Shown here: positions 22,998 to 61,926 of the stretch, piece after piece
How the letters are laid out: each line of letters opens with the position of its first letter
Position numbering within the stretch: position 1 is the stretch's first letter
Assembly (NCBI GenBank): GCA_963739135.1
Contig: CAVTZG010000026.1
Span: 192,105-256,104 of the forward strand
DNA length: 64,000 nt
Source: an uncultured Actinomycetes bacterium
Lineage (GTDB): Bacteria; Actinomycetota; Actinomycetes; Streptosporangiales; Streptosporangiaceae
Reading direction: 5' to 3'
Translations under genes and position numbers: made by a program
Notes under the pieces: model-generated
Databases searched by the model: none
What the model was told of the DNA's origin: nothing
The model's input: only the letters and a program-made list of their open reading frames with translations

Positions 22998-23019
22998 GGA
23001 CGGAGCTGCAGTGCGGCAG

Positions 23020-23481: not shown

Positions 23482-23626
23482 ACCCGCACATCCGGGCCAG
23501 CTCAGCCACCTCCCGTGTCCGGGTATGGTTCGCTGCAGCCGGGAATGTCGCGACGCGCCGTGCATGGTCGTTGACGCCGCTGCCCGGGCCGGCTTACGGT
23601 GCCAGTGCCGTGGGTAGTCAGCTCCC

Positions 23627-26550: not shown

Positions 26551-26754
26551 CCGGTGCCGGCGAATGCGGTCCCACCAGCCCATTCAGGCATTCCCGATTT
26601 TGCCGCCTGAGTCCGCCCTATTTTACCGTCGCTATACCTTTCCGTACCGGGCTCATGGCACTACGATCTGGATTGTCACCGTGCCCTGCTGCTGGTGGCA
26701 GGCGAGTGCAGTGGTGACCATTCCGGGCTTGGGGAGAGCGTTGGGGGGCGAGTG

Positions 26755-28338: not shown

Positions 28339-28384
28339 TTCGCTTACCCAAGATGCCCACGCTCCGATAGGGACAGGTGCTGGC

Positions 28385-30258: not shown

Positions 30259-30285
30259 GTGACGCGGCGGAGCTGGGGGCTAACC

Positions 30286-33122: not shown

Positions 33123-33133
33123 CGCATATAAAG

Positions 33134-33172
33134 TTGGGGGGTCCGGGGGGGACGACCCCCCGGGAAAAGAAT
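33134..33172 (-). repeat. G-run/C-run dispersed repeat, partial copy (intergenic)
   Basis: ggggggtccgggggggacgaccccccgggaaaaga. Its reverse complement matches cttttcccggggggac...ccccccggacccccc of copy 1. Confidence 0.65.
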
Positions 33173-33213
33173 GCCTGGCCGGTAGCGGCAGCCGGCCAGG
33201 GACGGAGACGTGG

Positions 33214-34521
33214 ATGACATCGGCGACGAGGAGCGAGCCTGACGGGCCGCGCTTTGGGCCTTACATCCTGACGGCCGTCATCGGCCGCGGCGGGATGGGC
33301 GTCGTCTACCGCGCCTACAACACCGTCAAGGCGCGCACCGTCGCCCTCAAGGTGCTGACCCCCGAACTGGCCGCGGATCCGGTGTACCGGGAACGCTTCC
33401 GCCGCGAGTCCCGGCGCGCGGCCCGGCTCAGCGAGCCGCACATCATCCCCATCCACGACTACGGGCAGATTGACGGCCGCCTGTTCATCGACATGCGCCT
33501 GGTGCAGGGCACCGACCTGTCCACCATGCTGGAGCGCGACGGGCCGCTGCCGCCGAACGGGGCGGCCTGGGTCATTGCCCAGGTCGCCTCGGCACTGGAC
33601 GCCGCGCATGCCGACGGGCTGGTGCACCGGGACGTCAAGCCGTCCAACGTGCTGATCACCGGGCATATCCAGAGCATGCCGTTCGCCTATCTGATCGACT
33701 TCGGCATCGCCCGCGCGGTCGGCAGCGTCACCGTCTCCACCGCCACCAGCGCCGTCGGCACCCTGGCCTACATGGCGCCGGAACGGATCAACGGGGCGCC
33801 CGGCGACCACCGGTCGGACGTGTACTCGCTGGCCTGCGTGCTGTACGAGTGCCTGACCGGGCACGAGCCGTTCACCGGGGAGATGGTGGCCGTCATGTGG
33901 GCCCAGATCAACTCCCCGCCGCCCGCGCCCACCGCGGTCAGGCCCGGCCTGCCCGCCACGGTCGACCAGGTCATCGCGCGCGGCATGGCCAAGGACCCGG
34001 CCAGCCGGTATAGCACCGCGGGCGAGCTGGCCGCCGCCATGCTGGCCGCGGTCGATCCCAGCGTACGGCAGGCCCGGGAGCCGGAACCCGGCCCGCCGAC
34101 CGCGGTCACCTACGTCCCGGCCAAGGGGGACCGGCCCGCACCGCACCAGACGGGCGCCGACGTCCCGCTGTGGGAAGGTGACCCGGCCGGCCGGACCCAG
34201 GCCGCGCTGCGCGCCATCGTGGCCAACCCCCAGCTGGGGGTGGCCGCCCTGTCCAGCTCGCAGGCCATGTCCGCCGCGCTGAAGGACCTGCTTCCCGGTC
34301 GGCCCCGGGAGACGAAGGTGCTGGTGGCCGCGGCCGAGGTGGGGCTGACCGCGGCCCTGAAGTATCACACGGCGCGCGGCATGGACGTGACTACCGCCCG
34401 CCGGCGGGCGGCGCGGTCCTTCGCCAAGCACACCGGGTTCGCGCCGGAAGCATGCAGCTGGGCGGTCGACCACCTGACCGCGGCGCTCGGCCTGGACGCC
34501 GGCTCCGAGGTAGCCCGGTAG
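33214..34521 (+). CDS. Ser/Thr protein kinase with ~150-aa C-terminal domain of unknown function
   Basis: [31 protein letters not shown] and GTLAYMAPE. No TM helix was seen. Confidence 0.9.
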
Positions 34522-34584
34522 AACCGGGGCGTCGGGTCCCACAATCTGGTCCCGCTCGGGTAAGATCTCAATTGCTGATGACAC

Positions 34585-34745
34585 CGGCCGGGAGAGATCC
34601 CGCATTGCTGCGGGCGCCGAAGGGGCAACATCCCCGGAACCTCTCAGGCACACGAACCAGCCGGAACAGGCATCTCTGGAGCGGGCCCAGCAGGCCAAAG
34701 GGGCCGCGACAGACGGGGAGCCAGCGACCGCGCTCGTCCGGGAGG
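34585..34745 (+). ncRNA. glycine riboswitch (one canonical aptamer plus a degenerate second element) in the gcvP leader
   Basis: ccGGGAGAGatcccgcattgctgcgggCGCCGAAGGGGCAAcatccccggaaccTCTCAGGCAcacgaac matches the glycine aptamer core. It is followed by CTCTGGAGCgggcccagcaggCCAAAGGGGCcgcgac, which lacks the CTCAGG element. It lies directly upstream of gcvP. Confidence 0.75.
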
Positions 34746-34751
34746 CTCTCT

Positions 34752-45487: not shown

Positions 45488-46091
45488 CTGTCTCGCCCCG
45501 GCCTCCCGTTCAGCCTGCTCGAGGCCCAGCTCGTCGCGGAGCGCGGCTTCCACGTGCTGCTGCAGAGCTGTCGCGGCACCTTCGGCTCGGGCGGGGCGTT
45601 CGAGCCGATGCGCCACGAGGTTTCCGACGGGCAGGACACCGTGGCCTGGCTGCGCAACCAGAGCTGGTTCGACGGACGGCTGGCCACGTCCGGGCCCAGC
45701 TATCTCGGGTTCGTGCAGTGGGCCCTGGCCATGGACCCGCCACCCGAGCTGGTGGCCGCGGTCGTGTACGTGGGCCCGCACGACTTCAGCCGCACCGCCT
45801 ACCGCAACGGCGTCTTCGACCTGTACAACTTCATGTCCTGGAGCGACCTGATCGTGCACCAGGAGCGGGTCAATCCGCTGCAGGGCATGGTCCCTGATCG
45901 CCGCGGCGCACCGGTTCGGCCGCGGGCACCGCCTCAGGCTCCAGGTGGCAGGCGGTGCGCACCCCCGCTTCGCCCGCAACCCCGGCAACGGCCAGGTCGA
46001 CGCGCCGCCCGGTGATTTCGCGCCGACCAGGTACAGCATCGGGCTAGGCGCCGAGAACCCCTCAGCGCTCCTGCTTCCTGCCGCGCCGTGA
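45488..46091 (+). pseudogene. CocE/NonD-family (S15 X-Pro dipeptidyl-peptidase-like) hydrolase remnant
   Basis: An internal fragment (RGFHVLLQSCRGTFGSGGAFEPM...DTVAWLRNQSWFDGRLATSGPSYLGFVQW) has no N-terminus. A C-terminal fragment in a different frame reads HRFGRGHRLRLQVAGGAHPRFARNPG. The middle of the gene is missing. Confidence 0.7.
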
Positions 46092-46716
46092 CCGGCCCGT
46101 CCGGCAATTCCTCAAGACCTTTATGCCGAACGGGCCGTGGTTCCTGTTCTCGGCCCACCCGGCGCGATCCCGGCCAGCCGTCCGCCTGACCGGCATGCCA
46201 GGGCCCCGATGCTCGCGCGCGGGGAGCTGCGGCTGATCGGAGCCAGCACGCCAGGAGTGGAGAGGCCGCCAGGTACGAGCGGACCGGCGACCTGGCCCGT
46301 GCCGCCGCCATCGGGTACGGGCAGGTCGGTGAGCTGGACCGCAGCCTGGAGGGCGCGGTCAAGGCGCTGGCCGAGCTCCAGGCCGCCGGCGGGCTGGTGA
46401 AGTCCGAGGTGGACGGGACGGCCGGGACGGCCGGGACGGCCGGGACGGCCGGGCCAGGCTGCCGCCGGCCAGGCTACGCCCCGAGGATCATGAACCGGTC
46501 TGCGCGTCGGCTCCGGCTCACGGCCCGTGGCACCTCTGCGGCGCCGGCCTGCCGTACTAACCCGAAGTTCCCCCCAAGCCGATTGGTCAACGCGTTGTAC
46601 CAGGTGGTAGAGCCCTTGATCACGAAAATTACATGTCTACGTAGTCATGAGCTGAGGTCGTTTTACCTGGTCAAGGCCTATGTTGCCTCGCGACCGGGGG
46701 GAACTACGGACTAACG

Positions 46717-47880
46717 TTAGGGCTGGGTGAAGCCGACCGGGGACTCGTCTCCGGGCGCCGAGGTGGCGGTCCCGTATGAGGAGATCCGGATCGGAAAGCC
46801 CGTGGCATACGCCTCGATCATCTGTCCGTGGCCGATCACCAGGCCGACATGCCCCGGCGAGGTCGGGGTGCCGTCCGCTCCGGCGAAGAACACCAGGTCT
46901 CCCGGCCGCACCTGGGAGGCGGGGACGTGCTGTTCGGTCGCCCACTGTTCCTCCGATGTCCGGGCGATGTCGATCCCGGCGCCCCGGTAGGCCATCATGA
47001 CCAGGCCGGAACAGTCGAAGGCATCCGGCCCGGTGCCGCCCCACAGGTACGGCTTGCCGAGCTGCTGCTCCGCGTAGGCGATGGCGGTGGCCGCTGCGTG
47101 GGTCGGCGCCTGGACCGCAGAAACGTCCCCGGTGATGGTTGAACAGTCGGCCACCGAGCTGGCGGACGGCATGGTCGCTGCCACCATTGAGTAGTTGCCC
47201 CCCGCGTACTGGCCCGCGTAGAACAGTACGCTCTGCACATAGGACTGCAAGTGGTTGTAGGCGAAGATCGCCCCCGAGGGGTTGGTCTGCACCCCGGCGG
47301 CGACCAGATACTTGGCGGCGCCCGCGATCGCGTCGGCCGGATCGTAGATATCCGCGTTCGGGCCGCCGTCCTCGTCGGTGGCGACGCCGTTGACCACTTC
47401 ACTAGCCGGGTGGACCGGCGCGCCGCCCCACACGTTGGTGGCCGCGCCGCCGATGCCGATCTGCATCGGGCCGGCCGCGCCGAAGCCGTTCTGCCCGCTG
47501 TGCACGCCGGGCAGGGTGGACTGGCCGTTGTCGCTCTCGACCGTCCCGATCCCGGCCAGGATCGTCCACGGCACGCCGTACTGCTGGCCGACCCTCCGGT
47601 ACCAGTCAAGGTAGTTGGCCGGGATCGACTTGGCCGTTGGACCTGCAGCCGGCTGCCCGGCTGCGCCGGTCTGCTGGCCTGAGCACCCCAAGCGGGCCGA
47701 GAAGAATGCGTCCGCGCCGATCAGGAGTGGCACGGCCAGCAGGCCGAGTCCGACCACGCCGATGAGGCCGACGACGCCGACGACAAGGATCCTCGGCGCC
47801 CGTTGCTCCCTGGTAGTGACCACCTGCTGGTACTGCCTGACCGTGGCCTGCCGCGACCGGTCGAGGAGGCTGTCCGTCAT
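46717..47880 (-). CDS. bifunctional lytic transglycosylase / NlpC-P60 (C40) peptidase, VirB1-like cell-wall hydrolase
   Basis: N-terminal TM helix. SLT-like WTILAGIGTVESDNG...GPMQI. C40 domain GKPYLWGGTGPDAFDCSGLV...GDLVFF...HVGLV. Confidence 0.85.
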   Translation of the reverse strand: MTDSLLDRSRQATVRQYQQVVTTREQRAPRILVVGVVGLIGVVGLGLLAVPLLIGADAFFSARLGCSGQQTGAAGQPAAGPTAKSIPANYLDWYRRVGQQYGVPWTILAGIGTVESDNGQSTLPGVHSGQNGFGAAGPMQIGIGGAATNVWGGAPVHPASEVVNGVATDEDGGPNADIYDPADAIAGAAKYLVAAGVQTNPSGAIFAYNHLQSYVQSVLFYAGQYAGGNYSMVAATMPSASSVADCSTITGDVSAVQAPTHAAATAIAYAEQQLGKPYLWGGTGPDAFDCSGLVMMAYRGAGIDIARTSEEQWATEQHVPASQVRPGDLVFFAGADGTPTSPGHVGLVIGHGQMIEAYATGFPIRISSYGTATSAPGDESPVGFTQP

Positions 47881-48509
47881 GAGTTACCCGCAGACGCCAG
47901 CTCGATGTCGCTGACCTGCCAGCTGCTGCCCGACCCGGTCAGGGTGACCGCGTACTGAGCGCTGCCGTTGCTGGCGCCGTGGGAGCTGACCAGGTGCTGC
48001 GTGGTGTTGACCACGAACGTCAGACTGGACGGGCCGAAGGCCCGCAGCGAATTGATCGCCGCGGTCCCAGTGGAGACCTGCTGCTGGCTGGTCCGCGTGC
48101 TGACCACTCCCGGCGTGGAGTAGCTGGCCTGCAGGGTCGTGCCCAGCTCCCCGGTGATCAGCCCGGTCATCTTTGCCACGTAGGCGGCCGCGCTCTCGGT
48201 GTAGCTGTAGGTGTTGTAGTCGACGCCGAACCGCACCGCCACCGAGGCGGCGGTGGCTAGGTCCTGCTGGGTGAAGGGCAGCCAGGCGTAGATGTTCACG
48301 CCGCCCGTCGCGGCCGCCGATGCCGTCTCGGTCGGGCCTGGAGCGGGGGTGGTCGCGGCCGCCGGGCCGGCCGGCGTGGGCGAGATGCCCGCCTGGGCAT
48401 GCCCGCCGGAGTGGGTCAGGGCGGGGACTACGAGGTAGTAGCCGAGCGCGGCGAGCGCGATGACGATGACGGCGAAAACTGCGCTGCGCTGGCGGGGGCT
48501 GAGCTCCAC
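47877..48509 (-). CDS. membrane-anchored protein, possible VirB8-like component
   Basis: Single N-terminal TM helix (SAVFAVIVIALAALGYYLVV), a Pro/Ala/Thr linker and a ~140-aa globular domain. Translationally coupled to the downstream hydrolase gene (ATGA). The VirB8 analogy rests only on architecture and position. Confidence 0.5.
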   Translation of the reverse strand: MELSPRQRSAVFAVIVIALAALGYYLVVPALTHSGGHAQAGISPTPAGPAAATTPAPGPTETASAAATGGVNIYAWLPFTQQDLATAASVAVRFGVDYNTYSYTESAAAYVAKMTGLITGELGTTLQASYSTPGVVSTRTSQQQVSTGTAAINSLRAFGPSSLTFVVNTTQHLVSSHGASNGSAQYAVTLTGSGSSWQVSDIELASAGNS

Positions 48510-48521
48510 GGTGCCTGCCGG

Positions 48522-51092
48522 TTACTTGCGCCGTACCGAGCGCAGCCAGAACGGCGTGGCCCGCGGTTCTTCGGTGCCGTTGCCGGTTCTGTCGCCGGTT
48601 CCGTTGCCGGGGCTGCGCGGCGGATCAGCGGGCGGCTCAGCCGGCCTGCGCGCTGCCACCGGCCGCTGCCGCGGGCCCGCGGCCATGTTGGCGCCCGCCC
48701 AGCTGGCCAGCGGCCAGGCGGGGGCGGCCTGACGCGGGCCCGACCCGCCGGTCCCGCCGGATCCGCCCGACCCGCCGGTCCCGCCGGATCCGCCCGACCC
48801 GCCCGACCCGCCGGATCCGCCCGACCCGCCCGACCCGCCGGATCCGCCGGTCCCGTTGGCGGGCGGCGCGGACCGGATGGATCCGGAGCCCGCGGAGCCC
48901 CCGGACGTCGCGCGGGACCGTGATGGCGCTGGCCCGGAGGCCGTCGAGCGCCCGGCTCGCCGGTACCGGGTGGCGGCGGCGCCGGCCGGGCCGTCGGCGC
49001 CGTTCCTCAGCGGCAGGTCCAGCGGTGGGGGGGTGCGCCCGGTGCCGCTATCGGTCTCGGGCAGGTTCCTGGTCCGGGCCACGTCGGCCGCGGCGCCGCG
49101 GCTGGAGCCCGGGCTCGTCTTGGCATTGCCGTCCGCCGGGGAAGACGCGTCGGGCCGGAACCGCGAGGTGCTGGCGGCGACCTGCCCGGTGCCGGTCGCG
49201 GTGCCGGTCGCGGTGCCGGCGGGCGCGGCGGCGGTGCCGGCGGCCGTGCCGGTGTCCGCGGTGCCGGTGCCGGTGCCGGCCGGGGCGGCTGAGCCGGGGT
49301 TGCGGCGGGCCCAGCGGGCGGCCCGGTAGGTCGCGATCCCGGGGATGGCCACGGTGGCGGCGTCCCGGGTGGAGCGGCGGAAGGTGGAACCGGCCTCGCG
49401 CAGGCTGTACTCGGCCCGCTCGTGCGAGCCGATGGAGCCGTAGCCGACGGCGGAGAACAGGTGGGTGAACGGCTTGCGGTAGATGAATACGGCCACCGTG
49501 ACCAGGGCGATCATCAGGATCTTCAGCGCCCACGGCAAGACCGTGTCGGCCGTGCCCATGATGAGGGAGTAGCAGTAGAGCAGCACGCTGAGGGTGATGG
49601 CGATGGCCACCTGCTTCATCAGCACGCCGGCCAGCATCTCGAACCAGCGGATGGCGATGATCCGGCCGAACCCGGGATGGGTCCCGATGATCAGGAACAA
49701 CGGCCCGGCCACCAGCAGCAGCAAGAAACCGAGCTTGAGCACGATCAAGGTCAGCGCGATGAGCAAGATGAGCAGCCCGGCCACGACCGCGGCGAACATC
49801 GCGGCGAAGGCGATCTCCAGCCGGGTGGTCCACTGGTTGCCCTGGAACAGGGGGTAGATGGCCGGGTCGCCGGTCTGGAGGGCGCTGGCGATGCCGGTGT
49901 AGGTGGCCTGCTTGGCCTGGATCAGCGCCGTGGTCGGGCTCTCGTTGGCCGCGATGGCCTGGGACCACAGCAGCTGCCGCCCGTAGGTGTTCACCACGGT
50001 CGGCGCGCCGCTGCCGGTGGCCGCGAACCCGGTGGTGCCGAGCTCACCCCACACCCACGGCTTGCACACCAGCACCGACCACAGCTCGTTGGCGTTCTGG
50101 TCGACCAGCCCGTTACCGGAGGTGAAAGCATAGCTCGCGGTGACGCTCTGCGGGTCGCCGGCGGCCACCGGCAGGCAGTTGCTGCCGGCCGGGGCGGGCA
50201 GCTTGGAGAACGCGGTGTTCAGCACCCCGGTGACGCCGTTGGAGACGGTGGTGCCGATGCCGGTGAAGTCGGCCAGGCCGATCAGCGCGATGGCCGCGAC
50301 CGCGGCCACCACCATCCACAGCGTGCCCTCGATGGTGCGGGTGGCGCGCTTGCGGATCAGGCCCTGCCAGGCCAGCCACATCGCGCCCAAGATGACCACC
50401 GGGGCCAGGTACGGGAAGTAGATCGCGTTGCCCAGCGCGCTGATCAGCTTGTCCACCGCGTTCTGCAGCCAGGTCAGAATGCTGCTGCCCGCCGCGGACT
50501 GGTAGACGGTGATCGTCACCCGGTCCAGGGACTTAGCCCCGTCAAAGACCATCCCGGCCACGTTGTTGCCGACCAGCGAGGTCATATCGGAGCACTGCAG
50601 CCCGTGAGCGGCCCAGAACTGCCCGGCGATGCCGTAATTGTCATACAGCGTCTTGCCGCCAGAGGACCCGGCCGGCGGCTCGATCATGGCGTCGATGCCG
50701 CCGGTGGCCTGCTCCGGCTGGGGCAGCGACGGCTCGCAGATATTGTTCAGGTCACCGACGATGCCCGCCGACCCCGACGAGCACAGCCCCACCAGCCCGC
50801 CGATATCACCGATCCCCGGCACCTGGCACACCCCGCCCGGCGCCGCAGGCGTGACTTCCGCGGTGAGCTGCACCGGGATCCGGGCCGCGGCGGCGGCCGC
50901 GGACCCTGTGGTCCGGGACACCGGGGGCCCGCTGGCCGCGTGCGCGGCGGCCAGCGCCGGGCTGGCCACCGCGAGCAGCGCCCCGGCAGTGAGCAGTACC
51001 CCGCCCGCCCAGCGCGCCAGGCGGCGGCCGCGAGTCCGGGACGCGGCGCGGTCAGGCGCGCAGCGCCGGGAGGGCGCGAACGGGACAAGCAT
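48522..51092 (-). CDS. large polytopic membrane protein, VirB6/TrbL-like, with long low-complexity C-terminal tail
   Basis: Signal or anchor, a ~200-aa exported region, at least 6 TM helices (LLILLIALTLIVLKLGFLLLLVAGPLFLI...), then GT- and GGS-repeat tails. Confidence 0.6.
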   Translation of the reverse strand: MLVPFAPSRRCAPDRAASRTRGRRLARWAGGVLLTAGALLAVASPALAAAHAASGPPVSRTTGSAAAAAARIPVQLTAEVTPAAPGGVCQVPGIGDIGGLVGLCSSGSAGIVGDLNNICEPSLPQPEQATGGIDAMIEPPAGSSGGKTLYDNYGIAGQFWAAHGLQCSDMTSLVGNNVAGMVFDGAKSLDRVTITVYQSAAGSSILTWLQNAVDKLISALGNAIYFPYLAPVVILGAMWLAWQGLIRKRATRTIEGTLWMVVAAVAAIALIGLADFTGIGTTVSNGVTGVLNTAFSKLPAPAGSNCLPVAAGDPQSVTASYAFTSGNGLVDQNANELWSVLVCKPWVWGELGTTGFAATGSGAPTVVNTYGRQLLWSQAIAANESPTTALIQAKQATYTGIASALQTGDPAIYPLFQGNQWTTRLEIAFAAMFAAVVAGLLILLIALTLIVLKLGFLLLLVAGPLFLIIGTHPGFGRIIAIRWFEMLAGVLMKQVAIAITLSVLLYCYSLIMGTADTVLPWALKILMIALVTVAVFIYRKPFTHLFSAVGYGSIGSHERAEYSLREAGSTFRRSTRDAATVAIPGIATYRAARWARRNPGSAAPAGTGTGTADTGTAAGTAAAPAGTATGTATGTGQVAASTSRFRPDASSPADGNAKTSPGSSRGAAADVARTRNLPETDSGTGRTPPPLDLPLRNGADGPAGAAATRYRRAGRSTASGPAPSRSRATSGGSAGSGSIRSAPPANGTGGSGGSGGSGGSGGSGGSGGSGGTGGSGGSGGTGGSGPRQAAPAWPLASWAGANMAAGPRQRPVAARRPAEPPADPPRSPGNGTGDRTGNGTEEPRATPFWLRSVRRK
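48730..48855 (-). repeat. 9-bp tandem repeat coding (GGS/GGT)n
   Basis: ccgccggatccgcccgacccgccggtc units, reading GGSGGSGGSGGSGGSGGSGGTGGSGGSGGTGGSG. Confidence 0.85.
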
Positions 51093-51116
51093 CGGGCAAA
51101 CTCCTGGCTGGTGCGG

Positions 51117-53609
51117 TTACGACGAGGCCTCGGCCGACACGAGAGTGCTATCGCGCCGGGGGCCGGGCTGCTGGCCCCGGGCCCGGGTGGGGTTGGTGTC
51201 GATCCAGTCCCTGAGTTCCTCGGAGACCAGGTCGATCCCGATGCGGCCGGCCCGGTCGTCCAGGTCGCGGAAGATGCACTCGCCGTTGCCGAGTGCGCGG
51301 AGCACGGCCTGGTGCTCATCGGAGGGCGCGACGCCGAGCAGCGACATGACGTTCGCCACCTCGGCGCGCTCGGTGGAGCGGAACGCGAAGACGCTGGACA
51401 GGCAGTTGGTGACCTGCTCGGCCAGCAGGTCACCGGCGTTCTGCGAGACCAGGATCAGCGCGGTGTTCCGGGACCGGCCCATCCGGGATACCTCGGGCAC
51501 CAGCTTGGCGCCCTCGGGGGTGGAGGTGATGGCCCAGGCCTCGTCCAGGAAGATGGCCTTGGGCTTGGTCCGGTCGATGCCGTTCAGCAGCTTGCGGGCG
51601 AACTGGGACACCAGGTACAGCAGCGCCACCGACAGCCGCTGCTCATAGGAGTAGTCGTCGCGGCTGGTGGTGGTGTCGGGCAGGGTGAGCCCGCCCAAGG
51701 TGAAGACCGTGGTCCAGCCCTCGGCGTCGATCTGCTGGCCCACCGACGGGGCGAAGCACAGCCGGGCCAGCCGCATCTCCGAGATCGACCGCATCACGGC
51801 GCCGGTGTTCTTCCAGGCCGGATCGCCGGCCGCCTCCAGGTAGCCGATGACCTTGCCCAGGCTGGGCCGCCCGGTCCCGGCGATCGCGCCGACCGCCTGG
51901 ATCATGGCGCTCTCCCGCTCCTCGCTCATCCGCGGCAGCAGCAGCCGCAGCGTCTCGGTGGCCATGGTCCGCTTCTCGGCCAGGTCGGCACCGAAGGAGA
52001 ACGGGTCGAGCAGGCCGGGCGCCGCGGCGCCCAGCGGCAGCACCCGCGCCTTGCGGCCCTGCGCCTTCAGGTACTCCACCAGCGACTCGGCGTCGCCCTT
52101 CGGGTCGATCACCGCCACCGTCGCACCCCGCAGGGCCAGCTGGTAGATCAGCAGCATGGCCAGCGTGGTCTTCCCGCCGCCCGGCTCCCCGGTGATCGCG
52201 ACCGCGGTCGGCCGGTTCCGCGCCGCGGCCAGCAGCGGATCGAAGTGCACCACCGACCGGGCCCGGCCCAGCGTCTCCCCGATATACGGGCCGATCCACC
52301 CCGCCCCGGAGCCGGCCCGGTCACCGAGCTCCACCGTCGCGGTCGGCATCCCGCCGGCAATGGTATACAGCGGCTGGCGCTGCACATAGGAGGACAGCCG
52401 GATCCGCTCGCCGGGCAGCGACTCACACAGCAGCGAGAACTGATCACCGGTGGAATTGACCACATCGATGCCGATATCACGGTAATGCTCCACCACCGCC
52501 TCCACCCGCCGCACACACAGATCCCGGGACGGCGCGGCCACCATCAGCCGGTGCCAGCCATACACAAACGGCAGCCGCTCCTTGGTAATGCCATGCTCCA
52601 GCATCCGCGCCGCCGCGATCTGCTCCGCCAGCGCAATCGGCGCCTCCGCCCCCGCCTCCCGGATATGCGCATCCATGTCCCGGGCATGCGCCAGACGGCG
52701 GCTGACATCCTTGCTCGCCTTCGCCGGCGGAATCAGCTTCATCCGGGAACTGACCTCCACCGGGAACGGCAGCGAATCAGCAAAATGCAGCCACGGCTCC
52801 CCGTCCGGGAACGCCATCACATCCGGGAACCGGGCAAACGACACAAACGCCGCATAGGACTGCCCGCCCATATGCTCCAGCCCCAGCATCGTCCGCCCGT
52901 TATGGACCTGACCCTCGAACAGCGCATCAATCTCCCCCAGACCCCACCGGCGGCGCCGGGCCGCCGACGGCACCGGCACCCCCGCCGTCGCCATCAGCGA
53001 GTGCCGGACCAGCCAGGCGATCTCACCAGAGGTCGCATGCCGGGCCGCCAGCGCGCTGGCGTTCAGCGCCCGGCCGAGCCGTTCGGCCGATTCGGTCCAC
53101 TTGACGATCTCCGACGGGCCGACCACCTCCTCGCCCGGCCCCGGCCCGCTCTCGCCGCGCACGCGCGTGCCGCGGAACTGCGACAGCACCCCACCCGTCA
53201 GCTGCGCTCGCACGCCGCGCTGGCCCAGCCGGACGCCGAGGTAGATCTCCTTGCCCCAGAAGTCCTTGGCCCAGACGTGCTCATAGGCCTGCTCCAGGTA
53301 ATCCCGCCAGCCCGGGCCGCCGTCCGAGGTCGCATCCAGCCCGGTGGCCCACGCCTGCGCCGGGTAGGACCGGTGGGCGATGCGCAGGTGGACCTCGGCG
53401 TCGGCCATCCTGATCGCGGCCAGCGCGACGGTGATGTTCGTCGCCAGCGCCTCCCGCTCCTCCGGGGTGGTGAACTCATAGGACACCGAAGGAATCCGGT
53501 AATACGCCCAGGCATGGGTGTCGGTAAGCAGGATCCGGTCATCGAAATACCGGATGGCAAACCGAGTGCGTCCCCGCGAACCCCTAGATCCCTTAGTCCG
53601 AGTGCTCAC
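51117..53609 (-). CDS. VirB4-like type IV secretion ATPase
   Basis: 830 aa with Walker A ITGEPGGGKTTLA and Walker B AIFLDEAWAI. Size and position next to the VirB6-like and TcpE-like genes fit VirB4. Confidence 0.8.
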   Translation of the reverse strand: MSTRTKGSRGSRGRTRFAIRYFDDRILLTDTHAWAYYRIPSVSYEFTTPEEREALATNITVALAAIRMADAEVHLRIAHRSYPAQAWATGLDATSDGGPGWRDYLEQAYEHVWAKDFWGKEIYLGVRLGQRGVRAQLTGGVLSQFRGTRVRGESGPGPGEEVVGPSEIVKWTESAERLGRALNASALAARHATSGEIAWLVRHSLMATAGVPVPSAARRRRWGLGEIDALFEGQVHNGRTMLGLEHMGGQSYAAFVSFARFPDVMAFPDGEPWLHFADSLPFPVEVSSRMKLIPPAKASKDVSRRLAHARDMDAHIREAGAEAPIALAEQIAAARMLEHGITKERLPFVYGWHRLMVAAPSRDLCVRRVEAVVEHYRDIGIDVVNSTGDQFSLLCESLPGERIRLSSYVQRQPLYTIAGGMPTATVELGDRAGSGAGWIGPYIGETLGRARSVVHFDPLLAAARNRPTAVAITGEPGGGKTTLAMLLIYQLALRGATVAVIDPKGDAESLVEYLKAQGRKARVLPLGAAAPGLLDPFSFGADLAEKRTMATETLRLLLPRMSEERESAMIQAVGAIAGTGRPSLGKVIGYLEAAGDPAWKNTGAVMRSISEMRLARLCFAPSVGQQIDAEGWTTVFTLGGLTLPDTTTSRDDYSYEQRLSVALLYLVSQFARKLLNGIDRTKPKAIFLDEAWAITSTPEGAKLVPEVSRMGRSRNTALILVSQNAGDLLAEQVTNCLSSVFAFRSTERAEVANVMSLLGVAPSDEHQAVLRALGNGECIFRDLDDRAGRIGIDLVSEELRDWIDTNPTRARGQQPGPRRDSTLVSAEASS

Positions 53610-55659
53610 CAGGATTCCTTCCGTTTGCCGTGTTTGCCGAGTCCGCGGCCAGGGCCGTCACAAGCACACCTGCCAGCGCCGTGTAGGCGATCCTGGTCTG
53701 GGGATTCAGCGCCCTCTGCGGATGTGAGACCGGCGGCGGCCCGGGACGCGCAAACAGAAGATCATCCCACGGGACCCGGACGATGGCCCGGCACCGGCCC
53801 CTGGCCACGGACTCGGCCCGCAGCACGTCCTCCATCGTGCGCCGGCTCACGCCATTGACCACCGTCACCGCCCGGCCAACCAGCTCACCATAGCCGTGCG
53901 CACCGAGCCACTGCTGGGTGCTGGCCAGCGAGGTAGCCGCGTCCGGGCTGGCCGGGACGACCAGCACCAGCTGATCGGCCGTCGGCACCACCCGGTTCAG
54001 GCTGCCGGGCGCCGGGTCGATCACGGTCAGCAGGTACCGTGCGGCGAGCAGGTCGGCCAGCCGCTGATAGTCATCGGGATCCAGTCCGCTCCCGCCGGTG
54101 CCCGGCAGGTCAGCGACCACCTCGAGCCTCGCGCCCGAGCCGCTCGCCCGCTCGTCGGGCTGCCGGCCGGCCAGGAGCGCCCGGACCGAGACGGCCGGAG
54201 CACGGCGGGCGGCCAGCGAGGTGGCGCCGGGATTGAGGTCTACGGCCGCGACCGCCGCTCCGCGCAGCGAGGCCAGGACGTGGCCGGTCATCTGGACCGT
54301 GAGCGTCTGCCCCGCACCCCTGGTACAACCCAGGACGGCGATCCGGCGCGGACCCGCTAGCGGCAGCCGGGCCCGGTCGCGGTGCAGCGCCTCCTGATCC
54401 TGCTCACCCGGCCTCTGGCCGACGGGCACTACCTTCACCTGGTGCCGCCAGCTCGCTTCGCCACGACCGGCCGGTCCGGCCAGCGCCTGCTCGTCGATCT
54501 CGGTGCGGCAGGTGCCGCACACCACGCTGCTGGGCTCGGGGTGGCCTGGGTCACCGATGCCGACGTCGACCGGGGTCGGGGTGCTGCAGGTGATACACGG
54601 GATCTTGACGCCGAACCGGGCCGCGCCGATCGCGTAGGCGATGGCGGCGACCTGGTCAGCCTGGCCGGTCACGCCCAGCTCGCGCAACGCAGCCGCGGCT
54701 GGGGCGAGCTTGCGCCACCAGCCGCGGATGCCCCGCAGCTGGCTGAGCGTGACAATGATTGCTTCGGGGAACGAAGCATGCTCAGGGGAGAGCGTGAGCT
54801 CGGGAAACGAGGCAGCCACCGGCTCCGGCCGGAACATGGGAGCGGAGGATGCCGTGGGCGGACCGCCCGGATCGCTAAGGGGTTCGGAGTCGTGGGAAAC
54901 CTCGGGCGTCCCGGGATCCGGAGTCCCCGCCGCATGAGACGGCGCGATCATCCACGCCGGCCGGAGATTGGGCACAGGAGCGCGATCGCAGGCCGACTCC
55001 GGCGCCCCAGTCCCCGGTGCGGATCCGCGGGGCCAAGGAGACCACGTGAGCTTGGCTCGCGGTGCTGCCTTCACCGGTATCGCTTCGGGCCGAGCCGATG
55101 CCCGCGCGGATACCCGCACATGCGCGGAGGGCGGTACGACCGGATCGGGGGCCGGTGCCGCGACAGCGGGCGAGGCCGCTCTCCCGGCCACGAACGGAGG
55201 CCGGGCCTCGGCCACATTCGTGCTGGCGGCTTGCAGCGCGGGTGCGCCCGGCCGGGCTCGGGCCGGCGCCTTCTTGGGGCGGACCTTCGGCGGATGTGCA
55301 TGCCACACGCGCGCGGACACCAAGATCTCGTCCTTCTCCGCGAAGGGCGCCATCCGGCACCAAGCCCGCGGTTCGCTCATGTACCGGACCTGAGAGGTGA
55401 CCAGCTCGGGCAATCGCTTACCCTCGATGACCGGTCTGGTCGTCAGCCAAGTGAGGACTCCGGGCGGCAGTACGTAAAGCCACACGAGGGTGTGGTTGAA
55501 CGGCAGGCCGACAGCAATAAGGAGGACCACATAGGGAACCGTTATCCCGACGAACACGCCAATCCAGGTGATCGGCAGAGGAGCTGGCAGCCGAAAATCG
55601 TATAGCTTGTACAGCCGCTTTTCGATTCGCCAGATGTTCGTGTAAGTGGGAAGATCCAC
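53593..55659 (-). CDS. fusion protein: TcpE/VirB3-like membrane N-terminus + Pro-rich linker + Cys4 zinc-ribbon + ParA/MinD-like domain
   Basis: N-terminus NIWRIEKRLYKLYDFRLPAPLPITWIGVFVGITVPYVVLLIAV (TcpE-like). Zinc ribbon CITCSTP...CGTCRTE. C-terminus RRIAVLGCTRGAGQTLTV...VVDLNPG...LTVIDPAP...LVLVVPAS (deviant P-loop ParA/MinD-type layout). One uninterrupted frame. Confidence 0.6.
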   Translation of the reverse strand: MDLPTYTNIWRIEKRLYKLYDFRLPAPLPITWIGVFVGITVPYVVLLIAVGLPFNHTLVWLYVLPPGVLTWLTTRPVIEGKRLPELVTSQVRYMSEPRAWCRMAPFAEKDEILVSARVWHAHPPKVRPKKAPARARPGAPALQAASTNVAEARPPFVAGRAASPAVAAPAPDPVVPPSAHVRVSARASARPEAIPVKAAPRAKLTWSPWPRGSAPGTGAPESACDRAPVPNLRPAWMIAPSHAAGTPDPGTPEVSHDSEPLSDPGGPPTASSAPMFRPEPVAASFPELTLSPEHASFPEAIIVTLSQLRGIRGWWRKLAPAAAALRELGVTGQADQVAAIAYAIGAARFGVKIPCITCSTPTPVDVGIGDPGHPEPSSVVCGTCRTEIDEQALAGPAGRGEASWRHQVKVVPVGQRPGEQDQEALHRDRARLPLAGPRRIAVLGCTRGAGQTLTVQMTGHVLASLRGAAVAAVDLNPGATSLAARRAPAVSVRALLAGRQPDERASGSGARLEVVADLPGTGGSGLDPDDYQRLADLLAARYLLTVIDPAPGSLNRVVPTADQLVLVVPASPDAATSLASTQQWLGAHGYGELVGRAVTVVNGVSRRTMEDVLRAESVARGRCRAIVRVPWDDLLFARPGPPPVSHPQRALNPQTRIAYTALAGVLVTALAADSANTANGRNPGEHSD

Positions 55660-55694
55660 TCCCGTCCCGCCTCTTCTTCCTGAGTCAGTCGGGA

Positions 55695-55952
55695 TCAGTG
55701 GACTCCGAGCGCGTTCGCTATGCCGGTGGCAAGTGTCTGGACGATGCTGGGCGTGTAGAAAACTACCGCAATGGCCACGGCAAGCACCATGAACTGCACG
55801 AACCGGGTGATCTCACGAGTGAAGAGGAAGAAGATCGCGACGATCCCCACGATACCGAGGAACAACGGCCCGAAGAGCCCCTGCAGGTAGGTGACAAGAC
55901 CCTGCGTGCTCAAGGCCACTGGAGCGGTCGCAGCGGTAATCTGAGTGAACAT
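55695..55952 (-). CDS. small 2-3 TM membrane protein (pilin-sized, VirB2/TrbC-position gene)
   Basis: 85 aa, MFTQITAATAPVALSTQGLVTYLQGLFGPLFLGIVGIVAIFFLF.... First gene of the T4SS-like operon. Confidence 0.5.
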   Translation of the reverse strand: MFTQITAATAPVALSTQGLVTYLQGLFGPLFLGIVGIVAIFFLFTREITRFVQFMVLAVAIAVVFYTPSIVQTLATGIANALGVH

Positions 55953-56061
55953 ACGATGGCCCTTCCGGGATCACACGAGCGGGTAGATAGCGAGGCGGGC
56001 GCCACTGAGCGAATGCTGGCGCGTTTTCTGTCATCACCTCCGATTTCCTGCGGCCGATCCA

Positions 56062-56090
56062 AATTGTTCACGAATCTCCCGAACAATTTC
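56062..56090. promoter_or_regulatory. perfect 9-bp inverted repeat (AAATTGTTC-N11-GAACAATTT) in the leader of the T4SS-like operon
   Basis: Read directly. Lies in a visibly less GC-rich ~520-bp intergenic region, ~110 bp upstream of the first operon gene. Confidence 0.3.
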
Positions 56091-56470
56091 ACCGCAATGT
56101 GACGGATCGCGCCGCCGGGCACGTGCGGGTCCCGCGGAGCCGAGCGATACCGGTCTAGAGCTCTGACACCGGACCACGGCACGGTGAGCAGCAGCGAAGC
56201 CGCACCGTGCATGGAAGAGCACTTTCCGTCACCAGCGCCGAGCGCACGAACCATCCCACCTCCGCACATGTCCGCAGTCGGCCGAACCGAGCGCGGCTAT
56301 TCCTTTGCGCGACCCGTCGTACGCCGTGTCATCGCGACCGTGAACCGGCTACAGCGCATCACCCTAACAGTTACGCGGACAAAACGACCAAGGTTTGCTA
56401 AACGTCGCAGACACAAATGACTCGACCCGGTTTGAAACGTGTGTTCGGCTCGGGCTCAGGGCCGATCACG

Positions 56471-57712
56471 TCACGGGCTCGGCGAGGCGAACTCGACCCG
56501 GAGGATGGCCTGGCCCTGAACGGGCCCGGAGATCGCTCTCTCCGGGCGGATCCGGGCATCGGCCCCGTTCAGGACGGCCCAGACCGCGCGCGCGTATGCG
56601 GCTGTATCCATGTGGGCGGCCGGGATGCTCTCGGCCAGATCGGCAAAGCCGAGCGGAACGCGCGGACTGGCGCCTGGGCCCAGGTTCCCGAATCGCACGA
56701 TGAAAATCGGCTCATGTCCGGCCACCGATGCGAGCGCCAGCAGCAGCCGCAAGTCGACCTGGCCGGCCAGCAACTGGCTCCTCGCGGCGGCCGACAACGC
56801 AACCTGGGAATCATGCAGCAGCACGGCGCCGTAGGTCTTACCGTTGGCCAGGTCCGCGCTGAGCGCGGCCTGGTACGCGGCCGCGCCATGCGGCGCGACC
56901 ACCCGGACGGTAATCGCGCCGGTCCCGGAGCCGAAGGACGCCAGGACGGCTGGCGCCCAGGCGATGGCGAGGCTGCTGCCGAACAGCGCACGTACCGTAG
57001 CCGTCTCGACGACCAAGACCGAAGGCACCGGATCTGGCGACGTTGGCCCGAGCACGACCAGCTTGCTCACGGGGAAGCCATACGCCTGGAGCGCGGCGCA
57101 CATCACCGCGTCACATGACACGGTGACATCCGGGCTGACCTGCTCGGCGACCCAGGCGGCAGCCTGCGCGCGGACGGTCGCCGGCGAGGCGGAGTAGTGG
57201 TCTACCGCGACGGCGCCCAGCGACCCGATGACGATAACGGCCAGGCCCAGCGCGATCAGGCGAGCCCCAACCCGGCGTCGTGGCTTTTCCGGCCCGACCC
57301 CGACCGCGGGCTGGGGCTTGACCGCGAAGCCGAGCCATTTGGTGACATGAGCCTTGAGGACGGGCCCGGTGATGCGCTCGCGTGTGGCGGCCGATTCGAC
57401 CGCGGCGGCGCCATTACGCTTCCGCTTGATGCCGTTCGCCGGGAAGCTGGACTCTCCCAGGCCCGCTACCTCGCTGACTACGGATTCCGGCGGCCGCTCG
57501 CGCCCGGGCGGATCGGTCGTTCGGTCCTGGGATGCGCGCTCCTGCTCGTCGGCGTCCGCCTCCGCGAGCTCGGCTAGCACCGCCGCCTGGATGCGCTGCC
57601 GCAATTCCTCCGGCAGCGCCAGCGCAATAGGCGAAACCGGCCCGGCCCGGCCCGCGCCTGGAACGCGCTGGGGCAGTTCCGTGCCCCGGTCTTTGTCTGC
57701 CATACAGGTCAA
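56471..57712 (-). CDS. membrane-anchored hypothetical protein
   Basis: 413 aa with a charged N-terminal region, one TM helix (LIALGLAVIVIGSLGAVAV) and a ~230-aa C-terminal domain. No family was recognised. Confidence 0.5.
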   Translation of the reverse strand: MTCMADKDRGTELPQRVPGAGRAGPVSPIALALPEELRQRIQAAVLAELAEADADEQERASQDRTTDPPGRERPPESVVSEVAGLGESSFPANGIKRKRNGAAAVESAATRERITGPVLKAHVTKWLGFAVKPQPAVGVGPEKPRRRVGARLIALGLAVIVIGSLGAVAVDHYSASPATVRAQAAAWVAEQVSPDVTVSCDAVMCAALQAYGFPVSKLVVLGPTSPDPVPSVLVVETATVRALFGSSLAIAWAPAVLASFGSGTGAITVRVVAPHGAAAYQAALSADLANGKTYGAVLLHDSQVALSAAARSQLLAGQVDLRLLLALASVAGHEPIFIVRFGNLGPGASPRVPLGFADLAESIPAAHMDTAAYARAVWAVLNGADARIRPERAISGPVQGQAILRVEFASPSP

Positions 57713-59372: not shown

Positions 59373-61830
59373 TCAGATTCGGCCGTCAGAACCGGCGACC
59401 CCCGCCCCCGTCATCTTAAGTAATAACTTGATCGGAGTAAAGGAATTGTCCCCCTCGTCGAGGGGCCCGGGGGGTACAGGGGGTACGGGGGGGCGGGCAG
59501 CCCCCTCGTGCGCAGGGGGGCTCTGGGGGGGATCGCTCCCCCCGAGGAAATAGAGCCGGGACGGCCACCAGTTCCACCGGCCGATCAGCACCACGGCCGA
59601 CGGCACCAGCAGCGTCCTGACCAGGAAGGTGTCCATCAGCACGCCGAGCGCGAGGCCGACGCCGACATCCACGATCGTCCGGACGTTCTGCGCCCCCGCG
59701 CTTCCGGACCCCACGATGGCCAGCACGCCGAACGTCCCGGCCAGCACCAGGCCCGCCGAGGTGACCGTGGTGCCGGTGACGCGCAGCGCCCGGCTGACCG
59801 CCTCGGGCAGCGGTAGCCGGTGCGCCTCTTCCCTGATCCTGGTCATGACCAGGATGTTGTAGTCCTCGCCCAGCGCCAGCAGGAACATGAACAGCAGGAA
59901 CGGCAGGATGAAGGTCAGTCCCGGCTGGCCGGCGGCCTTGACGAACACCAGCACGGTCAGGCCCAGGGCCGAGAAGTACGACAGCACCACGGAGACGATC
60001 AGGTACAGCGGCGCGATCAGGCTGCGCATCACCAGCGCGAGCAGGACCGCGATCACGGCGATGGCGATCGGGATGACCGTGCGCAGGTCGCTGTCGGACA
60101 GCTGGGCGACGTCGTAGGTGAACGGCGCCTGGCCGGTCACGCCGAAGGCCGACGCCCCGGCCGCCCGCGCCGCCCGGGCCGCGTCGGCCCGGATCGCGGG
60201 CACCGCCTCCTCGGCGAGGGTGCCGGCCGGGTTGCCCGCGGCCAGCGCGGTCGCGAACGAGAACCGTGTCCCCGTCGGCGCTCACGTACGACCCGCTGGC
60301 CCGGTAGGACTGGTAGGCGGCCAGCGTGACCCGCGGGACCTGCCCGCCCGGTGCGGCGGTCAGCGCGCGCGGCGGCCCGTAGGCGGCGTGCAGCGCGGTG
60401 TACTGCGCCGCGGTCAACGCGGTCCCGTTGGCGTTGAAGGGCCCGGACACCGCGGCGAACTGCGGGTCGGCGGCCAGCTGCCGCTCGGCCGCGGCCACCG
60501 CGGCCGCGGCCGCCCAGACCGGCTGGCGCAGCCGGAACACGATGATGGTGGGGTTGGCCGCCGACTGCGGGAAGTGCTCGGCCAGCAGCGCGTTGCCCAG
60601 CGCAGAGTCGCTGCCGGGCGGCGCGGTGGCCGCCCCGCCGAACCCGGCGGCCAGGTAGCCGGCTGAGGCCACCGCCAGCGCGGCGAACACGACCAGGCCC
60701 GCCACCAGCGTGGCGGCCGGCCGGTGCACGATCCGGGCACAGGCCGGTCCCCACCAGCCGGCCCGGCCGCCCCCCGGCTTGACCGAGGACGGCCAGAACG
60801 CGACCGGCCCGAAGATGGCCAGCAGCGCGGGCAGCAGGGTCAGCCCGGCGATTAGCATCAGCCCGATCGCGATGGCCAGCGGGGCGGCCAGGCCGGAATA
60901 CAGGCTGAAGGAGGCGGTGGCCAGCGACAGCAGCGCGGCGATGAGGATGCCGGCCGAGAACGTGATCGTCTCGCCGACCCGCGCGACCCCCAGCACGATC
61001 GCCTCATGGCAGCTCAGCCCGGCGCGCATCTCCTCCCGCACCCGGAACATCAGGAACAGCGCGTAGTCGGTACCCGCGCCGAGCACCAGGACGATCAGCA
61101 GCAGCGAGGCGATCTGCGACACCGACAGGCCGCCGACGGCGGCCTCGGCGGTCAGCCGCTCGGCCACCAGCACGACCACGATGGCGGGCAGCACCGCGAT
61201 CAGCGGCGCCAGCGCCGACCGGAACACCGCGACCAGCAGCGCGATCACGAACAGGATCGAGAACCACTGGACCTGCCCGCCGGTCTTGCCCGAGGTCGCG
61301 TTGTTGTCCACCCGGGTCGCCACCGGCCCGGCGGTATGGGCCGCCAGCCCGGCCGGCAACACGGTGGCCTGGATGACGTCGCGCAGCCCGGCCACCAGGC
61401 TGGCCTGCTGCGAGGTGGCCAGCCCGCCGGACCGGGCCAGCGCGGCCAGCACGGTGAGCTGCTCGGCCCGGCCGTCGGCAGACTCCCCGGCGTCCCGCGC
61501 CGCGGTCACCCGCGCCACCCGGCCGAGCGCGGCGGCCAGCCGGGCGATGGCCGCCAGGTCGGTGCCGGTCAGCGGCCCGCCGGGCCGGGCGACGACCACG
61601 CCGACCGCGGTCAGCGAGGCGCTCTGCAGCGGCGAGGCCAGCTGGGCGGCCTGCTCGCTAGGCGCGCTGGCCGGCAGGAACGAGGTGTTGTCGCTCTGCG
61701 TCACGCTGGACAGCGACGGGAGCAGCACCATGGCCGCGATCGTGCCCGCCACCCAGGCCAGCAGGATGGCCCAGCGGAAGCGGACGGCCAGCCGGCCGGC
61801 CGCCGCAAAGGAGGTACCCACAGAAGCCAT
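59373..61830 (-). pseudogene. MMPL-family RND transporter, interrupted by a 1-nt frameshift (or sequencing error)
   Basis: N-terminal two-thirds is in the frame of ORF 59416..63996 (MASVGTSFAAAGRLAVRFRWAILLAW...GAGTDYALFL...). C-terminal third is in ORF 59373..60203 (LGEDYNILVMTRIREE...). The frames switch within 60264..60281. Confidence 0.8.
59440..59548 (-). repeat. G-run/C-run dispersed repeat, reverse-orientation copy (3' end of MMPL gene)
   Basis: The reverse complement ctcgggggggagcgatcccccccagagcccccctgc...ccccccgtaccccctgtaccccccggg matches the start and end of copy 1. Confidence 0.75.
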
Positions 61831-61926
61831 CGTCGCCGGCCAGAGGGCGAAGCGGTTAGGACTGACAGCCATCGTGGCCGGCGCGGGATGGAATATGTAG
61901 GACGACCAGGAGCGTAAAGTTGCTTC

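Follow-up and report, generated by a model that had tools for sequence, protein, structure and literature searches.

A chromosomal type IV secretion-like operon without linked DNA-processing genes in an uncultured actinomycete and its relatives

Why would an actinomycete chromosome retain the membrane core of a conjugation machine without the genes that process DNA for transfer? This question is raised by a 64-kb stretch of contig CAVTZG010000026.1 (assembly GCA_963739135.1), from an uncultured member of the Actinomycetes, in which six tightly packed minus-strand genes (positions 46717-55952) encode a VirB4-like ATPase, several membrane proteins and a peptidoglycan hydrolase; the whole stretch is called the window below, and all coordinates refer to it. 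Mycelial actinomycetes are the textbook case of TraB/FtsK-type conjugation, and their type IV secretion system (T4SS)-type loci are usually dismissed as defective integrative and conjugative elements (ICEs). Our analysis indicates that this module is probably a vertically inherited, chromosomally fixed T4SS core of the mating-pair formation FA type (MPF-FA; Tcp/Con/Tn916-like) that has been selected as an envelope machine. A host function rather than self-transfer is most likely, since none of its chromosomal relatives has a linked coupling protein or relaxase.

Composition of the six-gene operon

An original prediction, made from the sequence alone, had described an orphan T4SS-like module of six to seven co-directional genes. 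The minus-strand genes are present where they had been placed: the TcpE, VirB4, VirB6-like and SLT + NlpC/P60 assignments were recovered with Pfam and NCBIfam profiles, the Walker A motif GEPGGGKT was seen, and both ends of the operon lie inside the window, with housekeeping genes bounding the module on both sides. Its orphan character extends across the entire window, as Pfam scans of essentially all called genes detected no relaxase, type IV coupling protein or integrase, and no tRNA gene was found. The gene count, however, stands only in part. Six genes, separated by -17 to +35 nt as fits an operon organisation, make up the module, whereas the seventh (56471-57712) shows no link to a T4SS.

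At the centre of the operon lies an apparently full-length VirB4/TcpF-family ATPase of 830 amino acids (51117..53609, minus strand, as are all genes of the module), in agreement with its predicted family. It matches AAA_10 (PF12846) over residues 463-800 with an E-value of 6.7e-61, its best NCBIfam match is TcpF, the conjugation ATPase of pCW3 (2.9e-68), and it also matches VirB4_CagE (6.3e-11) and TraC-F. The TcpF alignment (residues 239-809) scores 230 bits against an equivalog cut-off of 1100 and the VirB4_CagE alignment (residues 227-733) 41 bits against a cut-off of 643, scores that point to a family-level relative of TcpF and VirB4_CagE and not to an equivalog. Walker A (residues 474-481) and Walker B (IFLDEAW, residues 688-694) are both intact, and the PDB match is 4ag5, a VirB4-like protein (6.3e-06).

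Immediately upstream, a gene of 688 codons (53593..55659) encodes a TcpE/VirB3-like domain at residues 5-103 (TcpE, 4.6e-21). The original prediction had not noted that the C-terminal half of this protein, residues ~396-688 (53596..54474), is a degenerate MinD/ParA-like domain. A profile of 19 orthologues of this domain matched the BY-kinase VpsO (0.0014) and MinD (0.45) in PDB, and Pfam CbiA matched 11 of the 19 (best E, 0.002). In the P-loop, which invariably reads GCTxGAGQT, C/T and Q stand in place of the two lysines, and the deviant Walker A motif xKGGxGK[ST], with its signature and catalytic lysines, is not present in the domain. Judged by sequence, it is best described as a ParA-like pseudo-ATPase whose similarity to the fold family is weak, and with neither Walker A lysine retained, ATPase activity is unlikely. 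Relatives from lineages other than that of the window share 51-76% identity with this domain. The linker between the two parts is variable and Pro/Ala-rich; owing to its varying length, the fusions of relatives measure 529 to 1343 amino acids. A zinc ribbon-like CxxC...CxxC stretch in this linker (CITC...CGTC; 54500-54800, residues ~291-400) occurs only in the window and in the related loci L082, L083 and L090.

The TcpE and ParA-like parts form one uninterrupted open reading frame in 38 of 71 loci, Nonomuraea included; the other loci may be frameshifted assemblies of metagenome-assembled genomes (MAGs). On Nocardiopsis plasmids, which are considered below, the ParA-like protein is encoded by an adjacent, separate gene. 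Genes that are fused in one lineage and separate in another are a classical sign of a functional link, and the fusion in the chromosomal copies together with the neighbouring gene on the plasmids therefore argues that the ParA-like part is functionally linked to the T4SS machine.

The first gene of the operon (55695..55952) encodes an 85-residue protein with hydrophobic segments at residues 26-44 and 48-66, a two-transmembrane hairpin of the size of the small membrane subunits TcpD and VirB2. Its sole profile match, to TrbC/VirB2, is below threshold (0.0058), its median identity over 65 related loci is 88%, and a small gene occupies the same position ahead of TcpE in distant relatives (L085-L087). 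Downstream of virB4, an 856-residue polytopic protein (48522..51092) is VirB6/TrbL-like, matching TrbL/VirB6 (5.9e-07) and the CD3337/EF1877 mobilome membrane protein family (6.8e-14). It has at least six hydrophobic segments and a core that is ~70% identical in relatives, followed by a disordered tail of ~290 residues, rich in Arg/Pro/Gly/Ser/Thr, that is poorly conserved among them. Within the part encoding this tail, a 9-nt tandem repeat at 48729-48872 specifies (Gly-Gly-Ser/Thr)n.

The next gene (47877..48509) encodes a bitopic protein of 210 residues (p210), a candidate VirB8-like scaffold with an N-terminal transmembrane helix, a Pro/Ala/Thr linker and an ectodomain of ~130 residues. Although more than 3500 homologues were found, p210 has no match in Pfam, and comparison with the TcpC profile (probability 3%) revealed no sequence-level homology. 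An AlphaFold2 model of low confidence (pLDDT 45.8) contains the transmembrane helix, three helices and four strands, and its Foldseek matches, all weak (E of at least 7.5e-3), are exclusively to NTF2-like folds, including VirB8, TraM and IcmL. The VirB8-like label given originally, and with it an NTF2-like ectodomain, is thus plausible on the model, and distant relatives likewise have a gene for a small bitopic protein between those for VirB6 and the hydrolase. Finally, a membrane-anchored peptidoglycan hydrolase of 387 residues (46717..47880), whose start codon overlaps the stop of the upstream gene by 4 nt, combines SLT (SLT_2, 2.8e-07) and NlpC/P60 (NLPC_P60, 3.4e-25) domains and can be viewed as an analogue of VirB1, TcpG and CwlT. 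The catalytic residues of the transglycosylase (E115-S) and of NlpC/P60 (C290 and H344) are kept, and the top PDB matches include cell-wall hydrolases of Tn916-like conjugative transposons.

Conservation, chromosomal site and selection

One genome per GTDB species was scanned, and at least 551 species genomes encode a close VirB4 relative; the best 80 of these loci were examined. Their VirB4 proteins are 79-93% identical to that of the window and come from MAGs labelled Streptosporangiaceae/Trebonia or unclassified actinomycete and from the isolate Trebonia kvetii. The six genes are kept in the same order at all 80 loci. Housekeeping genes flank these loci. Upstream lie genes for IspH, a small membrane protein, RmuC and YchF (recognised from their sequences), then a TcpC-family gene (8.2e-15), while the downstream flank differs by clade: BacA with SdhB/SdhA; GDSL lipase, ANTAR, UvrD and thioesterase; or UDP-glucose dehydrogenase with glycosyltransferases. 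Among the 58 loci whose upstream sequence extends for 9 kb or more, YchF was found within 10 kb in 42 and TcpC in 54 (Trebonia kvetii is one of the four without it), and a TraG-type coupling protein in none. No relaxase, coupling protein, integrase, tRNA gene or att-like repeat was detected in the ±10 kb flanks of the 80 relatives.

In Nonomuraea and most Trebonia-like genomes the module sits between ychF and sdhBA. For example, Nonomuraea gerenzanensis (NZ_LT559118.1, an 11.85-Mb record that is listed in a plasmid collection but is really a chromosome) has the order IspH-RmuC-YchF-TcpC-small-TcpE::ParA-like-VirB4-VirB6-p210-hydrolase...SdhB-SdhA, with a VirB4 that is 76.5% identical to that of the window. 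Since this genome carries the full arrangement, occupancy of the ychF-sdhBA site predates the split of Streptosporangiaceae and Treboniaceae, both members of the Streptosporangiales. Pairwise identities of VirB4 and YchF are correlated over 40 loci (Pearson 0.84; Mantel test, 0 of 2000 permutations), and VirB4 is the more conserved of the two (78% versus 71% between Nonomuraea and the rest).

More distant VirB4 relatives, at 36-44% identity (L085-L087), keep the order TcpC-small-TcpE-VirB4-TrbL-small-hydrolase. In L087 a TraG-D_C coupling protein precedes the module and genes for DnaB and RecA are nearby, and this TraG-type protein beside the shared gene order ties the module to conjugative ancestors. 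When used as a tblastn query, the L087 coupling protein found no match in the window or the 80 related loci.

The window belongs to a lineage in which the module stands elsewhere. Its flanking genes are found at none of the 80 related loci, but two metagenomic loci (L082 and L083) are 92-98% identical to it at the nucleotide level and share the order P450...413-aa gene...module...PaaX...DUF488...ApbE. A TcpC/VirB8-like (PF12642) gene is absent in the window, L082, L083 and L090, a loss in the window's lineage that had escaped the original prediction, and the operon's leader and the linker of the fusion are specific to this lineage together with L090. The operon has therefore moved at least once, leaving the ancestral ychF-sdhBA site for different housekeeping surroundings. 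In comparison with L082 and L083, the ratio of nonsynonymous to synonymous substitution rates (dN/dS), approximate given the small divergence, is 0-0.07 for the small two-transmembrane protein, 0.10-0.14 for VirB4, 0.20-0.30 for VirB6, 0.31-0.34 for the TcpE::ParA-like fusion, 0.40-0.55 for p210 and 0.32-0.56 for the hydrolase. With all values below 1, these sequence comparisons indicate purifying selection on all six genes.

Several loci depart from the common pattern. The distal half of the operon is tandemly duplicated in L007 (12500-22300), where VirB6-p210-hydrolase occurs twice, and in one MAG (CAWINS01) the complete locus is present in two separate copies (L068 and L080). In addition, VirB4 homologues P0246, P0250, P0251, P0252, P0254 and P0256 (40-45% identity) contain an insertion of 280-440 residues inside Walker A (GGGK / ALALDTP...IPTHN / T). 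Its signature is intein-like: the first residue is Ala, the last two are His-Asn and Thr follows at +1. Pfam revealed no intein domain in these proteins.

Leader, seventh gene and surroundings in the window

Upstream of the operon lies a non-coding leader of 518 nt (55953..56470, minus strand) that is presumed to be the promoter region. It contains stops in all three minus-strand frames, its local GC dips to 0.656, and it is 83-95% identical at the nucleotide level to the leaders of the same-lineage relatives L082, L083 and L090. Neither a sigma-70 consensus promoter nor, in a search of Rfam for ydaO/c-di-AMP or other riboswitches, any RNA family was found in it.

This leader parts the operon from the gene that had been counted as the seventh (56471..57712, minus strand), which encodes a protein of 413 amino acids with a single transmembrane segment. 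The protein matches nothing in Pfam or NCBIfam. As a replacement for the missing TcpC it was rejected (hhalign probability 0.1; an AlphaFold2 model, pLDDT 45.4, that is not NTF2-like). The gene is absent at the 80 related, ychF-type loci, adjoins the module only in the window's lineage (the window, L082 and L083, and in inverted orientation L090), and occurs in L091 without any module. It is therefore probably a neighbour and not a T4SS component. Because it stands apart behind the 518-nt leader, lacks similarity to TcpC and is missing in the 80 related loci, the conserved unit is limited to 46717-55952.

G+C content is ~71% in the window and uniform through the locus, with no compositional break. 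The operon lies between gcvP, ApbE and PaaX to one side and, to the other, P450, MMPL and uvrC; the window also encodes thiolase, DUF885, RF3, mannose-1-phosphate guanylyltransferase, FHA, MerR and bifunctional-nuclease proteins, two Ser/Thr kinases, ferric reductase, FMN_bind and DUF488 proteins. The order FHA (GarA-like), MerR, bifunctional nuclease, MerR ... gcvP at 21700-37592 resembles the conserved Rv1827-Rv1832 region of mycobacteria, which speaks for a core-chromosome setting. A glycine riboswitch aptamer (34579-34669, plus strand; 61.5 bits, E = 2.6e-10) lies just upstream of gcvP (34806-37592). The sole mobile-element gene in the window, for an ISAzo13-family DDE transposase (10173-11900, minus strand; PF07592, 1.4e-131), is 35 kb from the module, and L001 has a fragment from this transposase family close to its module.

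Next to the hydrolase gene, 45500-46707 holds the remnants of two genes, five short blocks of 90-98% nucleotide identity to genes that are intact in L082 and L083 and encode a ClpB-like AAA+ ATPase of 711-743 residues and an S15 peptidase of 515 residues; ~2.6 kb has been lost here in several separate deletions. On the other side, the MMPL transporter gene (59373-61900, minus strand) is frameshifted near 60200, with its C-terminal 276 residues in another frame, and is either a pseudogene or carries an indel error of the long-read assembly. The truncated Peptidase_S15 and MMPL genes were considered as insertion scars marking a boundary of the module, and they are better explained by local decay and deletions (S15, ClpB-like) and by the frameshift (MMPL). 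A search of the interval from 43 to 62 kb for att-like flanking repeats, direct and inverted, returned nothing but brief GC-rich matches expected by chance and low-complexity repeats within coding sequence.

Known systems and competing explanations

The layout of MPF-FA systems is known from pCW3, ICEBs1, Tn916 and ICESt3 (PMC12857230), and the module resembles these systems (pCW3 Tcp, ICEBs1 Con, Tn916, ICESt3) in the gene order TcpC-(small TcpD-like)-TcpE-VirB4(TcpF)-VirB6-like-...-bifunctional hydrolase, as found in full in its relatives. TcpE (PF12648) is encoded immediately upstream of virB4, TcpF is the best NCBIfam match of the ATPase, and the hydrolase resembles those of the Tn916 type. 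A single locus thus holds the MPF-FA accessory set, VirB4 with TcpE/VirB3-like and VirB6-like proteins and a cell-wall hydrolase, although the coupling protein, relaxase and TcpC that MPF-FA comprises in the CONJScan sense were not found within the window. The module further differs from MPF-FA elements in lacking a TcpA/ConQ coupling protein and an integrase, in standing off mobile elements, in the absence of TcpC from the window lineage, in the pseudo-ParA fused to TcpE and in vertical inheritance across an actinobacterial order.

The original prediction had also regarded actinobacterial T4SS clusters as functionally uncharacterised, which overlooks the cmdABCDEF/tgdA genes of Streptomyces (PMC2782261, PMC6585502) and the transfer genes of plasmid SLP2. 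In Streptomyces coelicolor, cmdABCDEF (SCO4126-4131) and tgdA (SCO4132) form a co-transcribed chromosomal cluster that encodes membrane proteins, a membrane-associated VirB4-like ATPase and a secreted transglycosylase but neither a relaxase nor a coupling protein. Their loss disturbs aerial hyphae, septation and chromosome segregation, raises actinorhodin production and leaves plasmid transfer unaffected (PMC2782261, PMC6585502). Like cmd/tgdA, the module is a co-directional chromosomal operon that combines membrane proteins, a VirB4-like ATPase and a downstream transglycosylase, is conserved across species and lacks transfer genes. By this analogy, cmdABCDEF-tgdA, which sporulation requires, is the closest functional precedent. 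A cluster look-up among representative VirB4 matches for CmdB of Streptomyces yielded only MAG or unnamed proteins and Nocardiopsis. In contrast to the module's 830-residue VirB4, CmdB is short, with the Walker A lysine near residue 90 by published description, and the TcpE fused to a degenerate ParA, the SLT + NlpC/P60 hydrolase and the ychF-sdhBA site are further features of the module that set it apart from cmd.

From this composition we infer how the machine might assemble and function. A VirB4 hexamer would dock at the membrane via the TcpE/VirB3-like domain and the VirB6-like protein, with the small two-transmembrane protein beside them; p210 would serve as an extracytoplasmic scaffold, and the anchored SLT + NlpC/P60 enzyme would open the peptidoglycan locally. 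The degenerate MinD/ParA domain on TcpE could act as a cytoplasmic positioning or adaptor module, occupying the place of the coupling protein; ParA proteins are helpers of other T4SSs, such as that of gonococci (PMC8716806). If used as cmd is, the machine may contribute to envelope remodelling and to the organisation of chromosomes or compartments as hyphae develop and sporulate. In the window lineage, the operon would have left the ychF-sdhBA site and lost the upstream TcpC, with purifying selection persisting.

Several points weigh against an envelope machine with a host function. The view from the window is 64 kb wide, and a relaxase or coupling protein could be encoded elsewhere in the genome; the negative result for relaxases covers known families, and a relaxase of an unfamiliar type could have gone unseen. 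Because VirB4 and YchF are physically linked, their correlated divergence would survive transfer of the whole region too, and the module, having moved at least once (ychF site versus window site versus L090), is not wholly immobile. Its closest non-chromosomal relatives are plasmid-borne, so the lineage may still serve DNA transfer. The NTF2/VirB8 assignment of p210 depends on a low-confidence model, the likeness of the short CmdB to an 830-residue VirB4 is judged from the paper's description alone, and a developmental role of the module would follow solely by analogy with Streptomyces.

The main rival is a conjugation or DNA-export channel acting in trans, with a coupling protein (VirD4/TcpA- or FtsK/TraB-type) and a relaxase encoded elsewhere, an explanation that we consider unlikely. 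Such a channel might carry segments of the chromosome, plasmids or mobilisable elements that have integrated; alternatively, the ParA-like domain and further partners could replace the coupling protein, a non-classical route that the Nocardiopsis plasmids would share. In its favour, 91-145 kb Nocardiopsis plasmids (NZ_CP099838.1, NZ_CP080600.1 and NZ_CP074136.1) carry closely similar gene sets with a VirB4 67-71% identical to that of the module. On NZ_CP099838.1, TcpC, TcpE, VirB4, the VirB6-like protein, the SLT hydrolase, the small two-transmembrane protein and a MinD/ParA protein are detectable at 27-70% identity, and p210 was not detected there, with only a weak match (26%) on a related N. 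deserti contig. Unlike the module, these clusters are plasmid-borne and split into two divergent operons, their ParA-like protein is a separate 513-residue protein with a recognisable CbiA/AAA_31 domain, and no NlpC/P60 domain was detected in their hydrolase. A channel in trans would also be in keeping with the distant relatives whose elements also encode DnaB, RecA and a TraG-type coupling protein, with the requirement for homologous genes in the transfer of Streptomyces plasmid SLP2 (PMC2782261), and with the ParA/ParB proteins that are known to facilitate single-stranded DNA secretion by the gonococcal T4SS (PMC8716806).

Nevertheless, neither the window nor the ±10 kb around the module in the 80 chromosomal relatives supplies a coupling protein or relaxase, and a search of ten proteins around the Nocardiopsis plasmid cluster for either produced only Prim-Pol and HTH matches. 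In PLSDB/MOB-suite typing, the 11.85-Mb record of Nonomuraea and the plasmid of Nocardiopsis both come out as non-mobilizable, with no known relaxase. The P-loop of the ParA-like domain is without both lysines, the chromosomal cmd cluster of Streptomyces is no substitute for plasmid transfer genes (PMC2782261), and deep fixation beside ychF would be unusual in a transfer apparatus. A bolder version, to which we give a small chance, is that the module and its Nocardiopsis cousins form a T4SS lineage able to operate with neither a classical relaxase nor a coupling protein of the VirD4 type. The MinD/ParA-like part, physically coupled to VirB3/TcpE, would then be a substrate receptor or positioning device, and chromosomal copies would export or exchange DNA or protein, be it from one hyphal compartment to another or with mycelia nearby. 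If true, such a T4SS would add a third mechanism of transfer in actinobacteria to TraB/FtsK-type and relaxase/coupling protein-type conjugation.

The original prediction had left the choice between a secretion or surface machine and a decayed ICE. Of the two, a functional envelope machine, non-conjugative or acting in trans, fits better. The latter, a functionless remnant that has lost integrase, relaxase and coupling protein and is itself being lost, is in our estimate very improbable. Pipelines for ICE detection do label VirB4-only loci as defective ICEs, and such a 'defective ICE' was reported near the chromosome centre in all strains of a Streptomyces population (PMC9513070); moreover, TcpC is gone in the window lineage and the adjacent ClpB-like and S15 peptidase genes have decayed. 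The module itself, however, contradicts a dead remnant in its conservation, intact motifs and selection: all six open reading frames are intact and the catalytic motifs present, dN/dS is below 1 everywhere and at most 0.14 for VirB4 and the small protein, the operon is kept in at least 551 species genomes and at one chromosomal site from Nonomuraea to Treboniaceae, and VirB4 has diverged less than YchF. An ordinary ICE, or an integrated plasmid, with its relaxase, coupling protein, integrase and att sites just beyond the window, which ends 6.3 kb past the operon on one side, is for practical purposes excluded by the housekeeping genes on both sides (gcvP, ApbE, PaaX; P450, MMPL, uvrC), the same flanks being found in L082 and L083, and by a module that directly abuts ychF and sdhBA at its fixed site in other genera, uniform GC across the region and the lack of integrase, tRNA gene and att repeats in the window.

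An envelope machine derived from conjugation would not constitute a new category, as T4SSs without linked relaxases and the cmd cluster are already known. Chromosomal VirB4 loci without MOB (relaxase) genes have been read as conjugation-derived T4SSs that were exapted to other functions (Guglielmini et al. 2011, PMC3158045), and a T4SS of Patescibacteria homologous to monoderm conjugation machinery has been linked to their epibiotic lifestyle (PMC12102498). The module shares with these systems (PMC3158045, PMC12102498) a VirB4-centred, relaxase-less composition; unlike it, the proteobacterial cases are effector-secretion systems of diderms, and in contrast to Patescibacteria its host is a free-living, Trebonia-like mycelial soil actinomycete, with no substrate or partner organism evident. 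What distinguishes the module is order-wide vertical conservation at ychF-sdhBA, an apparently full-length VirB4 and the TcpE::pseudo-ParA fusion. It thus presents a monoderm T4SS core, minus its DNA-processing and coupling parts, that appears to have been selected at one chromosomal site across an order, the abundant uncultured soil Treboniaceae included. The fusion to a ParA-like pseudo-ATPase provides a concrete hypothesis on how a T4SS core may be positioned or fed, and since cultured carriers with complete genomes exist (Nonomuraea gerenzanensis and Trebonia kvetii), the function of this family of machines, a question open since the work on Streptomyces cmd in 2009, becomes testable.

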